64,000 nt of DNA from a virus. The translations under genes and the position numbers were made by a program. The notes beneath the pieces are model-generated. The model saw only the letters and a list, made by a program, of their open reading frames with translations. It was not told where the DNA came from and did no database searches. Location: the IMG/VR virus record IMGVR_UViG_3300045825_000261, positions 1 through 64,000 of that record; one strand, 5' to 3'. Positions 1,849 through 39,878 of this stretch are shown piece after piece (within the stretch, counting starts at the first letter, position 1; each line of letters starts with the position of its first letter).

Positions 1849-2643
1849 CTATGACAAGCTCAATTCTGCCGTCATCTTCATCAAGATCAGCGAGTCGGGA
1901 TTTGGCACCATCTTGCCCTTTTCCTTCATTGTTACCTTCAGTGCCGGTAACAGCATCATCATTTGGTTCGCTTGTGACGCCGATGTGCCGGTGCTGTACT
2001 TAGTCAACAGGTCGGTTTGCAAATTCCCCTTCATGCCGCTAGTGATTTCGCCATCGCGAATCAATACAGCGAAGGTGCGTTGCAAAACTTCATTCAACTT
2101 GCCACCATTCGCCATGTAGCTGAACAGCATCGTTGCCTTTTGACCAACCTTGTCAGCCAGTTCGTCAATTGTCACGCAGAACGCATCCTGTGACGCTTTC
2201 AGGTCGTCGCCGCTCAGACCAGCATCAGCAACTTCCAGCAGCAAGAACTCGTCAGCCTTTGCACCAAGACGACTCAGCAGCACTTTGGATTCGTGACCGC
2301 GTTGGCGGCGAACACGTTCAGCTTTTGGCTCTTTAGGTTCTTTCGGTTCTTTTGCAACCTTTTCCTTCTTAGCTTTTTTCGCTTTCTTGGGCGCAGCGAC
2401 ATCTTCAGTCTTAGGCTTGTCGCCTTCAGTTATCTCTTCGTGGTTAGCTTCATCATCGGCGTACATCGCTTCAACAGCTTCCGCTTTCTCGATTTCAGCG
2501 GCAACCGCTTCAATTGCGGTCACTTCGCCCTCTTCGCCAGACGCTTCGATGATTTCATCATCAAACATTGAAGCCAAGATCGCTGCTTCGTCATCAGCAG
2601 AGAGGTTTGCAGAAACAGCGGAAGTCATATTAAATTGTGTCAT
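1849..2643 (-). CDS. hypothetical early protein with acidic N-terminus and K/E/P-rich linker
   Basis: strong AAGGAG RBS; two tandem promoters upstream. Confidence 0.8.
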   Translation of the reverse strand: MTQFNMTSAVSANLSADDEAAILASMFDDEIIEASGEEGEVTAIEAVAAEIEKAEAVEAMYADDEANHEEITEGDKPKTEDVAAPKKAKKAKKEKVAKEPKEPKEPKAERVRRQRGHESKVLLSRLGAKADEFLLLEVADAGLSGDDLKASQDAFCVTIDELADKVGQKATMLFSYMANGGKLNEVLQRTFAVLIRDGEITSGMKGNLQTDLLTKYSTGTSASQANQMMMLLPALKVTMKEKGKMVPNPDSLILMKMTAELSLS

Positions 2644-2849
2644 TTTGAATCTCCTTAGTATGTGTAATTGTCGTTTTGTTGTATCGCTTCGTTTTGCGAT
2701 GATTGAATTATGAGTGTTTAATCAAGGACTAAGAAGCAATCTACTTGGCAAACTTCTTATTTCCTTGCTGCTCTTTCTTCTCTCGTTGCGTTGTTGTGAT
2801 GGTTGAATTCTAAAGAGTGGTCTTAGGACTTAAAACCACTCTTCGAGGA

Positions 2850-3176
2850 TTAAATACATTCCGCCAAGTTACTCAGTGGCTCACCGTCATATTTGCCGTA
2901 CAGTTCAAATTGACTGAAACCACTCCAAGACAGGTCTTGCATAAACTTAACAAGGCGCTGTTTGTTGATTGAATTAAAATCTGACGACTCCGCGATCAGG
3001 TAGGGTTTACGAAAGCTTGGCGCTACCTCTTCGGTAGCATAAAAGTCACCGTCGCCAAAATGCTTCATTACGCGACCTTGTTGATTGGGTACGGCAGCTT
3101 CGAGCCTGTAACCGATGATCCGGTCAGAAGTCTTAGTGCGCACAGTCTTTACATGGATAACCGCAATGCTGGTCAT
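2850..3176 (-). CDS. hypothetical protein
   Basis: start MTSIAV with GAAAGG RBS; promoter at 3213-3234. Confidence 0.7.
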   Translation of the reverse strand: MTSIAVIHVKTVRTKTSDRIIGYRLEAAVPNQQGRVMKHFGDGDFYATEEVAPSFRKPYLIAESSDFNSINKQRLVKFMQDLSWSGFSQFELYGKYDGEPLSNLAECI

Positions 3177-3548
3177 TTTGTTACCTTTCATCATGTTGTT
3201 TTCAAGGTGTTCATTCTCGCAACAAGACACAGGACAAAAACTGGCAAATGGTATTGCTCCTATATAGGTTCACCCATTGCAATTTGCTATATAAGAACGT
3301 GCGCGTGAGTAAACCACAAACGCAGGAGAAAGAAGCTTGCAGATATGGCGAAAAGTTGTTCGCCAACAATGTGAGGCGCAAGCCTTATGCGAGCGCTGTC
3401 ATTCGCTGAAAAGAGCCACAGAGAAAATCAGAATTTGAAACTGACGCAAAATCGCCACGCGAAAAGAAAACACACACCAGACTCGCCAAGGCGGTGAGTG
3501 CAGCGTGTGTTATTCGTAGAATAATAGTATCGCCGCGAGTAACCGTTT

Positions 3549-36180: not shown

Positions 36181-36471
36181 ATGAAAACATTTGACGTTGC
36201 CGCATGTGCGGACTTCCTTAAAATTCACCGAACCACAGTCCTAAAGCTTGTGGCGTCTGGCGACCTTCCAGGCGCAAAGATAGGCCGCGCCTGGGTCTTT
36301 CTTGAAACAGACTTAATCGACTATATACGCAACGCCATTCGCTCACAGAGTCACGTCACAACTAAGCCACAAGTGACTGAAGCTATGCGAGCAGAGCCAA
36401 TAGGTCGTAAGCGAAAGGTTGCGCCAGACCTCTCTGCATACACGTCACCACATCTTTCGCGCCAAATCTGA
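36181..36471 (+). CDS. xis: excisionase (HTH_17/MerR-like)
   Basis: FDVAACADFLKIHRTTV..GDLPGAKIGRAW; adjacent to the integrase. Confidence 0.85.
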   Translation: MKTFDVAACADFLKIHRTTVLKLVASGDLPGAKIGRAWVFLETDLIDYIRNAIRSQSHVTTKPQVTEAMRAEPIGRKRKVAPDLSAYTSPHLSRQI

Positions 36472-37620
36472 CGCCCTAAGATTTGCATAGCGACCCAACA
36501 TTTGAGTGCTGCTGTGTCCGGTGATCTTCATAATCTCAAAGTCCGACATTTCCGTTCTCTCGAAAAGTCTACTGGTCGCCTCGTGGCGCATGTCGTGAAA
36601 GTTTAAATCAACACAGCCGGCCGCCTCAAAGATTCTGGTGAACTGGTGCGACAGTGCCGATGTAACTTTCTCATATCGCTCCTTTGGCAAAAGCATAGCG
36701 ATCTTCTTCTCAGCGAGCCATGGGAATAGATACCCACCGTCAAACGTAAACAACTCCATTCCTCTTCGCTTTGCAAGAACGTGCTCCGTATAGGTAATCA
36801 GGCTCGCGATGGCAACAGACGACAGCGGCACCTGTCTGCTTTTGCCATTTTTGGTTTTTTTAAGAAAGATTGTCGCATTCTCAATGTCCACCATGTCCAT
36901 TTCAATTGAATAGATTTCACTGAGCCGCATTGCTGATTCAACAGCAAGATCAAACACGCACTCGATAGCCGCTTGGTAATCAAGCTTAAACGCCCTTTCT
37001 CGGCCCTCTGGCTTAACCTTGTTCATCACCGCCCTAATTCGCTCTTCCTCACCAGACTCAAGGCGTCTGATGCGCCCTGCGCTGTGCTTAACCTCCAACG
37101 TGTCATCTTTAGCAATGACGGCCGCATCTGCTGGCGTATAGGCGGAATACCCCTTCGGCAACAGTCTGAGAGGGTTTGGAGCAAGCTCCGCAACACCCTG
37201 CGTTATTGCCCAGTCAAAACACCGAGCAAGCGCACCGACATTATGTCTGATTGTGGATGGGGACAAATTAGCCACGCGCTTCATCGAGCTTATCCATGAC
37301 TCGATCCACTTGTAGTTGACGAGTCTTATACTTACACCGCCAACCTTATTAAGCAAACCACTCAGGTAATCAGTATCGCAGGACGTGACGTGACGCTCGC
37401 GCATATATTCACGAATAAGATCGCCAATTGAAGAATACTTCTTCACATCGTCAAGAAGCTCTGGTGGCACGATACCGGCATCGAGCAACGACTCGACATG
37501 TTTGCCGTAAGCGATCGCAGCCTCTTCCGTATCGAATGTCCAATACCACGGCTTTTCTCTTACTGCTTTTCTTTTCACGGTCAACTCAAAGCGACCGCCT
37601 CTTGGCTTAATTGACGCCAT
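36445..37620 (-). CDS. int: tyrosine integrase
   Basis: SAMRLSE, KTKNG, HDMRH, TGH, RYA catalytic set. Confidence 0.95.
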   Translation of the reverse strand: MASIKPRGGRFELTVKRKAVREKPWYWTFDTEEAAIAYGKHVESLLDAGIVPPELLDDVKKYSSIGDLIREYMRERHVTSCDTDYLSGLLNKVGGVSIRLVNYKWIESWISSMKRVANLSPSTIRHNVGALARCFDWAITQGVAELAPNPLRLLPKGYSAYTPADAAVIAKDDTLEVKHSAGRIRRLESGEEERIRAVMNKVKPEGRERAFKLDYQAAIECVFDLAVESAMRLSEIYSIEMDMVDIENATIFLKKTKNGKSRQVPLSSVAIASLITYTEHVLAKRRGMELFTFDGGYLFPWLAEKKIAMLLPKERYEKVTSALSHQFTRIFEAAGCVDLNFHDMRHEATSRLFERTEMSDFEIMKITGHSSTQMLGRYANLRASDLARKMW

Positions 37621-37687
37621 AACGACTCCCGTTCGCCCACATGGGCTGATTATTGTAACTCACGTCCTTGCACAAAAGTATGGTTAG

Positions 37688-37901
37688 TCGGTAGGTTCTG
37701 CCTACCGAGCAGCCGACTTGATGCGACTTTTGGCGACTTTAGACGATAATGGGCAAATAAAAAGCCGCCCGAAGGTGGCTTAACTTGTTGATTTTGTGGT
37801 GCATTTTGTTTTTTACTTCAGATGGTGAGTGGATTTGCAATCCGTCCGGTTATCTTTAGAATCAGTAACTTACAAGCTTCGCCTACTAACTTGCCTACCG
37901 A
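37688..37901. other. attP site targeting the tRNA-Cys anticodon loop
   Basis: core CGGATTGCAAATCC (minus strand, 37831-37844); IHF-like sites at 37781-37793 and 37860-37872; CCTACCGA arm repeats; CGACTT repeats at a 10-bp period. Confidence 0.8.
37759..37782 (-). terminator. terminator hairpin inside attP
   Basis: AAGCCGCC-CGAA-GGTGGCTT with A-run. Confidence 0.65.
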
Positions 37902-37905
37902 TATT

Positions 37906-37979
37906 TGGAGGTGCGTCCCAGAGTCGAACTGGGCTAACGTGATTTGCAATCACGGGCATAACCGATTTGCTAACGCACC
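37906..37979 (-). tRNA. tRNA-Cys (GCA)
   Basis: GGTGCGT acceptor stem, anticodon arm CGTGA-TTGCAAA-TCACG, GTTCGAC T-loop, U73 and encoded CCA. Confidence 0.95.
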
Positions 37980-38004
37980 ACAAACCAACGGACAGCATAG
38001 TACC

Positions 38005-38418
38005 TTATACAGTGATCTTCGTCCACTGCTCTTCCCAAGAGCTCGCCTCAACATCTTCGTCTATCCAGATCAAGCGATCACAGGCAACATCAAGCTCGCA
38101 CCACAATAATCCAAAAACCTGACTAATCATCCACTCAAGATCAAACAACTGCTGTGGCTTACCGCCAATCTCGATCCAGAACACGTACTTGCAGGCTATA
38201 TGTACAGGTTGAGATTTTAAAATATGCACCGCATACTCCGATAGCTCACCATTAACAACCATAGACCTCGCATCACTCCACGTCAGAGAGATAACGCTAT
38301 CGGGGTACATAGATGTGTCCAATCCAAATAAAACTGCGGCAGGACAAGGGCGAGGCAACTTCTCAAAGCCGCGACGCAACTGTCCTGCCGTCATTCTTGC
38401 GTAATTGTGTCCAGTCAT
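38005..38418 (-). CDS. hypothetical protein
   Basis: GGAGG RBS before MTGHN. Confidence 0.65.
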   Translation of the reverse strand: MTGHNYARMTAGQLRRGFEKLPRPCPAAVLFGLDTSMYPDSVISLTWSDARSMVVNGELSEYAVHILKSQPVHIACKYVFWIEIGGKPQQLFDLEWMISQVFGLLWCELDVACDRLIWIDEDVEASSWEEQWTKITV

Positions 38419-38443
38419 ACTTCCTCCTGGACACAAGTATAGC

Positions 38444-39167: not shown

Positions 39168-39878
39168 TTAAGCGGCTACAGCACCATCATTCATCACCAA
39201 GCGCCACTTAGCACCCAAGAACTGCAACACAACTGCGTCATTGCCGTTGAAGGTGATTGTGGTCAAAACGCCAGGCATATGAAGACCGCGCATTGTTACA
39301 GTGCCAGCGCCAAACATCGCCAGAGACTTCTTCTGAGACTCGTCACCATCAGGCAAGTACACATCAAACGCGCCAGCAGCATTGAACTGAGTGTGCTCGG
39401 TATCCATAGAGATGTAGGACAGGGCAGAGCCCAAGTTCGTGGACTGAGTAATAGTGTTTGTACCGCCGGAAGTCTTAGCGCTTGCAACGGTGAAGCCAGT
39501 TGTCGCGCCGTAAGAAGGCGTGCAGGTCAAAGTCGTTGTGCCGTTCGTAGAGAACAGACCAGCGGCAACGCCTGGATATGCAGCTTGAGAAGCCAACAGA
39601 CCGTTAAACTGAGCAACCAAGGAGGTCAGAGACGCAGCCAAAGAAGCGCCAGGAACAAACTGAACGGCAGTTGGGTTAGCGGCTACAGCCGTCAGGGCTA
39701 CAGCGCCAAAGGTGATCGAATCGCCAGCGGCCCAGTTGGTGCTCAACAACACACTTGATGCAGACGAAATCACACCGCCTGCTGTAATTACTTCCGGTAC
39801 GCCGGATTTTCCAGCTTGAATTGCTGGCATTGGTGCTTGAAAGTGTTCAACGGGCACGTACTTGGGTGAATGAGACAT
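39168..39878 (-). CDS. probable virion decoration/fibre protein
   Basis: A/G/T/S-rich; strong AAGGAG RBS; own terminator. Confidence 0.55.
   Translation of the reverse strand: MSHSPKYVPVEHFQAPMPAIQAGKSGVPEVITAGGVISSASSVLLSTNWAAGDSITFGAVALTAVAANPTAVQFVPGASLAASLTSLVAQFNGLLASQAAYPGVAAGLFSTNGTTTLTCTPSYGATTGFTVASAKTSGGTNTITQSTNLGSALSYISMDTEHTQFNAAGAFDVYLPDGDESQKKSLAMFGAGTVTMRGLHMPGVLTTITFNGNDAVVLQFLGAKWRLVMNDGAVAA

Follow-up and report, generated by a model that had tools for sequence, protein, structure and literature searches.

A bare tRNA-Cys anticodon-arm core beside a phage tRNA-Cys gene suggests tRNA-dependent lysogeny in a ~100-kb temperate phage

Organization of the attachment region

The window analyzed here is a 64,000-nucleotide stretch of a viral record (IMG/VR IMGVR_UViG_3300045825_000261, positions 1 to 64,000). 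Its minus strand carries, in this order, a complete tRNA-Cys(GCA) gene, two direct arm repeats, a bare core, a strict IHF consensus and a terminator-like hairpin. Continuing toward a tyrosine integrase gene (36445–37620), these are followed by three CGACTT motifs at 10-bp phase and an inverted pair of arm repeats. Each element of the attP layout that a first-pass annotation had listed upstream of int was found where it had been placed. Since phage genes lie on both flanks, the site is an attP and not a prophage end.

The core, CGGATTGCAAATCC (37831–37844, minus strand), reproduces 14 nt of the tRNA-Cys anticodon arm exactly, with neither a T arm nor an acceptor strand after it. Its 13-mer GGATTGCAAATCC occurs exactly only once in the 64-kb window (37831–37843, minus strand), and besides it only the anticodon arm of the phage's own tRNA comes near in this region, with 2 mismatches. 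The 14-mer, which is the 13-mer with a leading C, is found at tRNA positions 27–40 of E. coli tRNA-Cys, in agreement with the earlier assignment of the core to this anticodon arm. A classical tRNA-restoring attP carries the 3' part of the tRNA from the crossover to the CCA end, and the attP of the window does not have this part. ARAGORN called no tRNA halves at the core and only the complete gene, an Rfam search of 37600–38050 at E≤10 gave no tRNA-like piece besides that gene, and the 30 nt after the core include no T loop; the 41 nt from the core loop to the IHF site contain neither T arm nor acceptor strand. The annotated lack of either tRNA half beside the core was therefore upheld. Identity between the core and tRNA-Cys genes is limited to 13–14 nt, so that, at the sequence level, no functional tRNA would be rebuilt at a junction.

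The P' arm holds an inverted pair of the arm-type repeat CCTACCGA (37688–37708), and the P arm holds two direct copies (CCTACTAA and CCTACCGA, 37882–37901, plus strand) at 36 nt from the core. The repeats match CCTACYRA, which occurs five times in the window (3.03 expected); four of these five matches fall inside 37688–37901, flanking the core. The strict IHF consensus (WATCAANNNNTTR / AATCAACAAGTTA, 37781–37793, minus strand) was the single match of a consensus scan over 3.4 kb, where 0.12 were expected and 22 of 200 shuffles had at least one. Its ATCAA begins 41 nt past the core loop, a distance that is identical in three relatives (L077, L179 and G417). The second of the two IHF-like sites noted before, read by eye between the P-arm repeats and the core (37860–37872, minus strand), departs from the consensus at one position and occupies the place of a TTGAT motif in the relatives. 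Repeats distinct from the core on both its sides, together with a bending-protein consensus, would mark these flanks as arms of the lambda type.

Two further elements lie on the P' side. The CGACTT trio (37714, 37724 and 37734, spanning 37714–37739 on the plus strand) is at an exact 10-bp phase, while the hexamer itself occurs at chance frequency in the whole window (36 seen, 38.2 expected); the trio may be where an accessory protein, Xis or Int, acts. The hairpin (37754–37787, minus strand) folds at -12.1 kcal/mol and is followed by a U run (z -2.23, 5 of 200 shuffles equally good). A simple terminator scan did not flag it, and relatives have a hairpin and T run at the equivalent position.

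The complete tRNA-Cys(GCA) gene (37906–37979, minus strand; ARAGORN; Rfam tRNA, 51.2 bits) is the sole tRNA gene of the whole 85,174-bp record. Its presence near the core and in the same orientation, and its anticodon stem CGTGA/TCACG, which differs from the core, are as first annotated. The core loop follows 65 nt after the CCA end of the gene. In sequence, the gene is identical at 70 of 74 nt to the tRNA of another phage contig (L172), and it is also close to a tRNA-Cys at a prophage junction in Sideroxyarcus (L156). A sigma-70 promoter scan of the minus strand upstream of the tRNA gave no match; weaker -10-like hexamers are visible there by eye.

The integrase and its neighbors

The integrase (391 aa, 36445–37620, minus strand) belongs to a tRNA-Cys/tRNA-Val-targeting family (PF00589, E 1.1e-23, matching residues 217–382 only; phrog_1). 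Residues R232, K257, H342, R345, H369 and Y378, which we take to be its catalytic set, are invariant across 24 relatives. Convergent with int is a gene for a small excisionase-like HTH protein of 96 aa (36181–36471, plus strand; Pfam HTH_17, E 2.8e-12; PHROG excisionase families, E 1e-5 to 1e-4), an int/xis arrangement that is also annotated in Curvibacter phage PCA1, where the excisionase-like gene likewise lies downstream of int. Phage lambda offers a familiar parallel: the core of its attP is flanked by arm-type integrase sites and IHF sites and an excisionase gene is nearby, as in the window. Lambda, however, has its attB outside tRNA genes and carries no tRNA of its own.

Directly upstream of the tRNA/attP module lies a conserved 143-aa ORF (orf143, 38005–38436, minus strand; phrog_4693). 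A homologous C-terminal part (43% identity over 63 aa) ends just upstream of attP in the junction contig L213 described below, and translations read by eye show orf143-like C-terminal parts ending likewise upstream of attP in classical phage contigs. We considered orf143 as a dead recombinase and rejected this, as its best BLASTP match to int has an E value of 1.2 and Pfam assigns it no family.

No relative of the integrase above 54% identity was found in the genome collection. The closest integrase proteins (P0002–P0012) are 53–65% identical to it, and several of their contigs measure 77–110 kb. A scan of viral contigs with the single integrase protein found no relative; relatives in viral contigs were recovered only by an alignment-based search. 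A megablast query with 16 kb around the site gave no match in the phage collection.

Classical relatives restore the tRNA

Among the best 80 genomic loci with related integrases, a complete same-strand tRNA-Cys precedes int by 150–220 bp in 63 cases, mostly after host tRNA-Gly genes. The rest comprise 11 loci at tRNA-Val(TAC) and 6 without a called tRNA. On the evidence of these loci, the integrase family is one that targets tRNA-Cys.

In the classical attPs of this family (L005, L007, L011, L017, L029, L033, L039 and PCA1), the tRNA-Cys 3' half is present from the anticodon stem onward. It is preceded by two direct arm repeats about 40 nt from the core and a TTGAT motif, and followed by a hairpin and an inverted arm-repeat pair just upstream of int. 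The window thus shares with its classical relatives the P-arm repeats, the TTGAT motif, the anticodon-arm core, the hairpin, the inverted arm repeats and int, in the same order, with a bare core in place of the anticodon arm. The bare core is positionally equivalent to the core of the classical relatives. Their integrases (PCA1, accession OP588919; L005, L007, L011, L017; and prophages) are of the same family at 33–54% identity, some of them reside on the same ~100-kb phage backbone, and the prophage hosts include Burkholderia, Chromobacterium, Stenotrophomonas, Gallionella, Azonexus and other genera.

The difference lies behind the core. Whereas the attP of the window stops after the anticodon arm, the classical one also includes the T arm and the acceptor strand and extends as far as CCA, and a complete tRNA-Cys therefore stands at attL. 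Five classical records searched over their whole length (four proviruses and L005) contained no tRNA genes.

Bare-core relatives and their junctions

The arrangement of the window is not unique to it. A complete tRNA-Cys, followed after 65–76 nt by a bare core without T loop, was also found in L077, L080, L172, L179 and G417. One of these, L077, is a complete genome of 105,979 bp with terminal repeats. Between diverged relatives, the spacings of 65 nt and 41 nt do not vary by a single nucleotide. L179 is the closest backbone relative of the window phage; it has lost its integrase, which indicates that such modules can decay. A scan of viral contigs for the arm motif of the window after a CCA end returned a single chance match inside a coding region (L215).

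The first-pass annotation had suggested inspecting the junctions of integrase relatives for split tRNA-Cys genes, and both halves were indeed encountered, the 5' half in G417 and the 3' half in L213. G417 is a 39-kb phage contig with terminase, major head and tail proteins that has int alone in common with the window phage. An exact 99-bp repeat starting at the 13-mer is found at its positions 102–200 and 39253–39351. The right-end copy belongs to attP, with a complete phage tRNA-Cys and the P arm ahead of it. Ahead of the left-end copy stand a promoter-like TATAAT and a tRNA-Cys 5' half that differs in sequence and is fused to non-tRNA phage DNA at the 13-mer. This join leaves a truncated tRNA at attL: ARAGORN called no tRNA at the left end, and Rfam scored it at 22 bits, below the cut-off of 29. 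A DNA search with the left flank matched the tRNA 5' half only and recovered no empty attB.

In L213, a left part of phage type runs into a tRNA-Cys 3' half, beyond which lie Rhodoferax-like chromosomal genes. The left part consists of a homologue of orf143, a complete tRNA-Cys gene, a P arm showing the window's pair of arm motifs, and the core. It is joined to the 3' half at the bare core, located 68 nt downstream of its tRNA gene. Past the tRNA 3' half there is a phage-like IHF motif at the distance seen in phage P' arms, and this contig is therefore ambiguous and may be a scarred hot spot instead of a clean attR. DNA searches for the native locus of the L213 host gave matches to the tRNA and to a repeated gene fragment only, and here too no empty attB was recovered.

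The first-pass annotation had further held that the phage tRNA is immune to the phage's own integrase. This does not apply in general, since in L172, L080 and L179 the 12 letters common to bare core and target are present in the phage tRNA as well. Positions 28–30 read CGG in 74 of 75 targeted tRNAs, and C28 is present in none of seven phage copies. A missing C28 as a general rule of self-avoidance was nevertheless rejected: the 5' stem at the attL of G417 keeps a T there, and natural host tRNA-Cys genes with the stem of the window phage exist (L234 and L235).

A model of integration for the window phage

The region 37688–37979 together with int is probably the attP of a ~100-kb temperate phage using tRNA-dependent lysogeny. 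In the window, a tyrosine integrase gene is adjacent to attP, and the phage tRNA is of the target's isotype, both of which belong to such a system. The idea that integration breaks the host tRNA-Cys and that the phage copy replaces it had been raised in the first-pass annotation. The family's specificity, the position of the core and the G417 junction speak for it; a junction of the window phage was not among the contigs, so that for this phage we infer the mechanism. In particular, the window phage would integrate at a host tRNA-Cys, the host would have a single tRNA-Cys gene, and the lysogen would express the phage tRNA and depend on it to survive.

According to this model, the integrase would be bent into place by the arm-type repeats and IHF, and the bare core of 13–14 bp would recombine with the anticodon arm of the host tRNA-Cys gene. 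Because no T arm or acceptor strand follows the core in attP, attL would have the host tRNA 5' half alone, followed by the phage terminator and int. The attR would hold the host 3' half without a 5' half, and the host gene would be inactivated. The complete phage tRNA-Cys, located 65 nt upstream of the core loop, would end up at attR and supply the missing function.

In the read sets, the window phage was seen in free form only. The core is spanned without interruption by contigs from X1 and X2, two wetland runs that belong to different studies, and the contigs of four runs yielded no attL or attR of the window phage and no loose end at 37831–37845. They break only inside the tRNA, where tRNA-Cys genes of other organisms share words with it. 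Contigs drop rare forms, and an unbroken core therefore does not exclude integration.

One may go further and regard tRNA, attP and int as a self-contained, portable cassette that replaces its target and brings with it transcriptional takeover, a wider host range and addiction, a proposal that we consider doubtful and put forward tentatively. The phage tRNA gene has a fixed place at the P arm's outer edge, and the sole terminator-like hairpin is on the P' side of the core, which would become part of attL. Once the phage has integrated, transcription of the host Gly-Cys genes would be halted before int, and the promoter of the phage tRNA would take over host genes downstream of tRNA-Cys, such as tRNA-Leu in the Gly-Cys-Leu operons that are present in relevant hosts. 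It is plausible from this layout that the phage tRNA could drive downstream host tRNAs. The bare core would require 13 bp of a universally conserved anticodon arm and no match in the acceptor stem, which might widen the range of hosts that can be lysogenized. Loss of the prophage other than by precise excision would be lethal, amounting to addiction. The occurrence of the cassette in the unrelated 39-kb phage as well as in ~100-kb phages fits with a movement between phage backbones.

Alternative explanations

An unlikely alternative is that the site is idle, that is, a classical attP that has eroded, with integration absent or rare and the tRNA-Cys serving translation or protecting against host anticodon nucleases. 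Decay is seen among the relatives: L179 keeps the tRNA and the bare core with int reduced to a 60-aa stump, L035 and L106 have a bare core without a phage tRNA, with the phage present in a Massilia assembly as a separate contig of phage size, and the 3' half in L200 is partly decayed. The detection of the window phage in free form alone would also be expected of an idle site. However, the int of the window is of full length with its six conserved catalytic-type residues, an excisionase-like gene is present, and neither the arm repeats nor the IHF consensus nor the exact core is damaged. The exact conservation of the 65-nt and 41-nt spacings among diverged relatives argues against erosion as well, as does the record's only tRNA, which is cognate to the target and directly adjoins attP. 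Finally, G417 represents an integrated junction with this very layout.

It is also quite unlikely that integration is harmless, with a host that has more than one tRNA-Cys gene and a phage tRNA that is a bonus on which the lysogen does not depend. Tandem tRNA-Cys genes do occur in metagenomes, where both matched copies were complete in 20 of 29 loci, a set that comes from a pattern scan built to find two copies. In the 63 genomic loci described above, by contrast, a single tRNA-Cys stands after the tRNA-Gly genes and ahead of the integrase, and the median E. coli genome has one tRNA-Cys place (5425 genomes).

A crossover in the phage tRNA-Cys itself, giving two complete hybrid tRNA-Cys genes and leaving the bare core accessory or vestigial, would make use of the loop TTGCAAA common to the phage tRNA and any host tRNA-Cys and of the 12 shared letters in L172, L080 and L179, but it is highly improbable, given that the bare core, and not the tRNA, is bracketed by arm repeats and IHF sites in the classical order and distances, that the G417 repeat starts at the bare core and its attL 5' half differs from the phage tRNA, and that L213 is joined at the bare core downstream of a complete tRNA. 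These two relatives already place the exchange inside the bare core and leave the phage tRNA intact.

Comparison with known systems

The preferred reading, tRNA-dependent lysogeny, has precedents. Replacement of the broken tRNA by a phage copy is already published under this name, with experimental demonstration in mycobacteriophages (Guerrero-Bustamante and Hatfull, mBio 2024, PMC10865867). The relevant passages of that paper list Fionnbharth (K4), LeBron (L1), Cain (K6) and Gaia (X), and likewise the Gordonia phages BrutonGaster, OneUp and Mollymur. They report that the phage tRNA is required for viable lysogens: plaques are clear without it, and attP-int plasmids need it. Integration vectors derived from phages such as the one described here would similarly need the tRNA gene to work.

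As described in these passages (PMC10865867), the actinobacteriophage systems resemble the window in their tyrosine integrase, arm-type sites flanking the core and a tRNA of the target isotype. Their attB lies in a host tRNA gene, the type of target that we expect for the window phage, and their common core of 8–17 bp is short like that of the window and rebuilds no functional tRNA. Close relatives of these phages have a ~45-bp 3' half and no tRNA, paralleling the classical relatives found here. The systems differ in host (actinobacteria versus probably a betaproteobacterium), in isotype (Lys, Ile2 and Leu versus Cys) and in evidence, as the actinobacteriophage system was shown by experiment and the window is known from sequence alone. 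They also differ in layout. The Fionnbharth tRNA overlaps gene 37 on the opposite strand (PMC10865867), while in the window the tRNA abuts the P arm on the same strand, at a distance of 65 nt to the core loop, which makes a single cassette of tRNA, attP and int.

Two further cases were reported from sequence analysis. Prophage Lj965 of Lactobacillus johnsonii interrupts a tRNA gene centrally and carries a tRNA gene of matching isotype (cited in PMC10865867), and so do Sinorhizobium meliloti prophages like Mesorhizobium phage vB_MloP_Lo5R7ANS, which interrupt tRNA-Leu(UAG) (PMC11476347). Integrases, isotypes and hosts are different from those of the window, and the passages on these prophages in the two papers give no description of a tRNA gene abutting attP.

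Further work on the frequency of tRNA-dependent lysogeny outside the actinobacteriophages was called for in the discussion of PMC10865867. The window and its relatives provide what appears to be a clear case in another phylum, with hosts that are probably betaproteobacteria and with the isotype Cys. For annotation, this means that a lone phage tRNA beside int can mark the integration target, and that an essential tRNA can have its only copy in the cell at the end of a prophage.

Evolution of the bare-core state

The integrase family to which the bare-core phages belong otherwise consists of textbook cases of tRNA restoration. Both states occur on related ~100-kb backbones, with possible intermediates (L213 and L200) and decayed forms (L179 and L035), and these states side by side are material for asking how one turns into the other. 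A quick integrase tree had suggested three separate origins of the bare-core state. This was rejected in a test that took in four variant integrases and left out that of G417: a tree with one clade was likelier by 19.1, with a p-AU of 0.80. The bare-core state may thus have a single origin among the four variant integrases tested.

Organization of the attachment site

Almost all genes are encoded on the minus strand. Read in this direction, a conserved 143-aa ORF (orf143, 38436-38005, minus) is followed by a complete tRNA-Cys(GCA) gene (37979-37906, minus; ARAGORN, Rfam score 51.2 bits), an 8-nt repeat occurring twice in direct orientation (37901-37882), an imperfect IHF-like site, the 14-nt core CGGATTGCAAATCC (37844-37831, minus), a strict IHF consensus (37793-37781, minus), a terminator-like hairpin, three CGACTT hexamers in 10-bp phase, two more copies of the 8-nt repeat, inverted relative to each other (37708-37688), and the gene of a 391-aa tyrosine integrase (37620-36445, minus; PF00589). 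An excisionase-like HTH gene is convergent with the integrase gene. The elements reported in the first-pass annotation (tRNA-Cys, arm repeats, CGACTT series, IHF sites and core) were thus all recovered. Phage genes lie on both flanks (CobS/CobT-like proteins, guanylate kinase, ATP-dependent ligase), and contigs run unbroken across the core in two wetland runs from different studies, so the site is in attP form. The parent IMG/VR record is linear, 85,174 bp long and estimated to be 81% complete; the tRNA-Cys is its sole tRNA.

The exact core 13-mer occurs only once in the 64 kb. Four of the five CCTACYRA matches in the window fall inside 214 bp around the core, with 3.03 matches expected for the whole window. 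The three CGACTT hexamers are exactly in phase, and the overall frequency of the hexamer in the window is not above chance. The 14-mer is found at tRNA positions 27-40 of E. coli tRNA-Cys, as had been stated earlier. The flanks of the core gave no tRNA-like Rfam match at E<=10, and there is no T loop within 30 nt after it.

The C-terminal parts of orf143 homologues stop just before the attP in L213 (a metagenome contig discussed below) and, as judged by eye, likewise in phage contigs with a classical attP, i.e. one carrying the tRNA 3' half that restores the host gene. The ORF belongs to no Pfam family, and BLASTP against the integrase gave nothing significant (best E 1.2); it may be part of the integration module.

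An integrase family that normally restores its target

A protein search with the integrase identified 1478 relatives in a set of 8000 scored candidates; apart from the query itself, the best match is 65% identical. Those with names belong to betaproteobacteria, including Azonexus, Herbaspirillum, Undibacterium, Chromobacterium and Burkholderia. We also used an alignment of 24 relatives to scan a set of genomes, one per species, and kept the best 80 of 153 loci. A complete tRNA-Cys gene lies upstream of the integrase on the same strand in 63 of these 80, usually preceded by one to four host tRNA-Gly genes; another 11 are located at tRNA-Val(TAC). Six have no called tRNA (three are short of upstream sequence, two have only the tRNA-Cys 3' half, and one is the Massilia contig L106, see below).

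In eight free-phage relatives (L005, L007, L011, L017, L029, L033, L039 and Curvibacter phage PCA1), a tRNA-Cys 3' half spanning the anticodon stem to CCA was found upstream of the integrase gene. It is preceded by two direct arm repeats and a TTGAT motif, and followed by a hairpin and an inverted arm-repeat pair. No tRNA gene was detected in four proviruses (83-110 kb) or in L005, a 110,824-bp contig with terminal repeats. As a family, these anticodon-arm integrases normally leave a restored tRNA gene.

A classical prophage of ~57.5 kb with both ends visible (L216, L220) is located at tRNA-Cys in a Sideroxyarcus genome (G011, contig C38, 251057-308660). Its attL and attR have the tRNA 3' half plus ~10 nt past CCA in common, providing a clean reference for the restoring mode in a likely host group. 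The loci targeting tRNA-Val(TAC) form a well-supported sub-branch of the integrase family, with L002 (Pseudomonas phage 8P), L075, L081 and L131 and the genomic loci L133, L138, L144, L151, L153-L155, L158, L160, L162 and L164. In Pseudomonas phage 8P, a classical tRNA-Val 3' half is located upstream of the integrase gene; it is absent from the annotation of the record.

A variant layout with a complete tRNA gene and a bare core

When aligned on the anticodon loop, the window agrees with the classical attPs element by element, with two departures: the 41 nt after its loop are not tRNA sequence, and a complete tRNA-Cys lies immediately outside its P-arm repeats. We could observe the same layout in five other records: L077 (a complete genome of 105,979 bp with terminal repeats), L080 (89,634 bp), L172, L179 and G417. 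The CCA end and the core loop are 65 nt apart in L077, L080 and the window, and 73-76 nt apart in L179, G417 and L172. Between the end of the loop and the ATCAA of the IHF site there are 41 nt in the window, L077, L179 and G417, compared with 52-53 nt, about one helical turn more, in those classical attPs with a strict site (two of eight). The variants are scattered in a quick integrase tree; a tree grouping the four tested variants together was not rejected and even had a higher likelihood, so we make no claim on the number of origins.

The closest backbone relative is L179 (ligase 57% and CobT 51% identical). It retains the tRNA-Cys, P arm, bare core, IHF site and hairpin (2500-3200, minus strand), its integrase gene has shrunk to a 60-aa ORF, and it gave no match to the excisionase-like gene; this att module appears to be decaying. 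The window tRNA-Cys (37906-37979) is identical to that of L172 (8585-8658) at 70 of 74 positions, but the adjoining arm repeats and the integrases (43% identity) are very different, so that the similarity breaks at the tRNA 3' end.

Two further relatives have a bare core and no 3' half: L035, an IMG/VR record with terminal repeats (111,592 bp), and L106, a 112,962-bp contig of Massilia sp. TN1-12. In both, the anticodon-arm core is fused straight to a repeat, another copy of which lies just before the integrase gene; the arrangement is located about 60-430 bp upstream of the integrase match. The integrase match begins only at residue 42 (L106) or 59 (L035), the entire L035 record has no phage tRNA, and the Massilia assembly has the phage on a contig of its own, which is of phage size. 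These may be integration-disabled or episomal relatives, like Daredevil, a published phage without the tRNA.

Putative junctions with the host

G417 (39,351 bp, GC 40.5%) encodes terminase, major head and tail proteins and has only the integrase in common with the window phage (42% identity). Its final 99 bp exactly repeat positions 102-200, the repeat starting at GGATTGCAAATCC. The right-end copy comes after a complete tRNA-Cys of the phage and a P arm of 75 nt; this is the attP. The left-end copy follows a terminator, a TATAAT and the initial 40 nt of a different tRNA-Cys; across these 40 nt, the best matches among 301 Gallionellaceae-family genomes are 93% identical. Next to this copy come non-tRNA phage DNA, the IHF site and the integrase gene. 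ARAGORN calls no tRNA at this end, and Rfam scores 22 bits (cut-off 29). We read it as a putative attL in which a tRNA-Cys gene was interrupted at its anticodon arm and left unrestored, the kind of split gene that the first-pass annotation had proposed to look for. The presumed host flank on the contig is just 74 nt long and matched nothing.

The 6.5-kb metagenome contig L213 contains, in this order, an orf143 homologue, a complete tRNA-Cys gene, a P arm bearing the same pair of arm motifs as the window, the core and a proper tRNA-Cys 3' half. Beyond it lie PilZ, PEP-CTERM, AlgX, PhoU-like, PiT and AhpC genes; the PiT protein shares 85-88% identity with Rhodoferax proteins. The arrangement is consistent with the attR of a lysogen, an end that is uninformative on rebuilding at attL. 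Past the tRNA end there is a phage-type IHF motif at phage distance, as in L238 and L239, other elements at tRNA-Cys hot spots; the site may therefore be scarred by earlier integrations. In the metagenome contigs L203, L207, L210 and L200, a complete tRNA-Cys is followed 60-70 nt later by a second copy of the 3' half, intact or decayed, and L203 has an additional third acceptor-end repeat. These look like scars of repeated integration at a tRNA-Cys hot spot.

The proposal that integration breaks the host tRNA-Cys and that the adjacent phage gene replaces it is thus well supported by comparison with relatives; for the window phage itself, the event would follow from that comparison rather than from a junction of its own. 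As for the proposed single-copy target, the median number of tRNA-Cys places per genome is one in E. coli (5425/5426 genomes).

Proposed self-immunity and effect on downstream tRNAs

The phage tRNA had also been suggested to be immune to its own integrase. In the window and in G417, the tRNA and the core disagree at both outer positions of the 13-mer. The four differences between the window and L172 tRNAs amount to two compensatory pair changes within the anticodon stem, a suggestive hint of self-immunity. However, the phage tRNAs of L172, L080 and L179 hold the same 12 letters as their bare cores, host tRNA-Cys genes with the window-type stem occur naturally, and the 5' stem retained at the G417 attL is unlike the phage core. 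Immunity would therefore not be general.

That the phage tRNA could drive downstream host tRNAs seems reasonable, since Gly-Cys-Leu operons occur (Gallionella, E. coli, and L232 and L233, two genomes from a family sample around the Acidovorax genome G015) and the only terminator-like hairpin of the attP is on the side destined for attL. A promoter scan upstream of the tRNA gave no sigma-70 match; by eye and without statistics, -10-like hexamers are seen 10-25 nt upstream in the window and other variants.

Relation to tRNA-dependent lysogeny

The mechanism is already known and was described by Guerrero-Bustamante and Hatfull 2024 (PMC10865867). Fionnbharth and other actinobacteriophages integrate into tRNA genes via an 8-17 bp core without rebuilding the tRNA, and lysogen survival requires their own tRNA of the same isotype; close relatives have classical cores of ~45 bp and no tRNA. 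In their discussion, the authors cite prophage Lj965 of Lactobacillus johnsonii and ask for surveys beyond actinobacteriophages. In S. meliloti, two prophages disrupt tRNA-Leu(UAG) and bring a copy of their own (PMC11476347); PMC12429752 finds no such case, and no title among papers using the term tRNA-dependent lysogeny indicates tRNA-Cys or betaproteobacterial phages. At the sequence level, the window has the features of this lifestyle. It differs from the published systems in that the tRNA gene adjoins the attP, forming one cassette, and in that both states occur within one integrase family.
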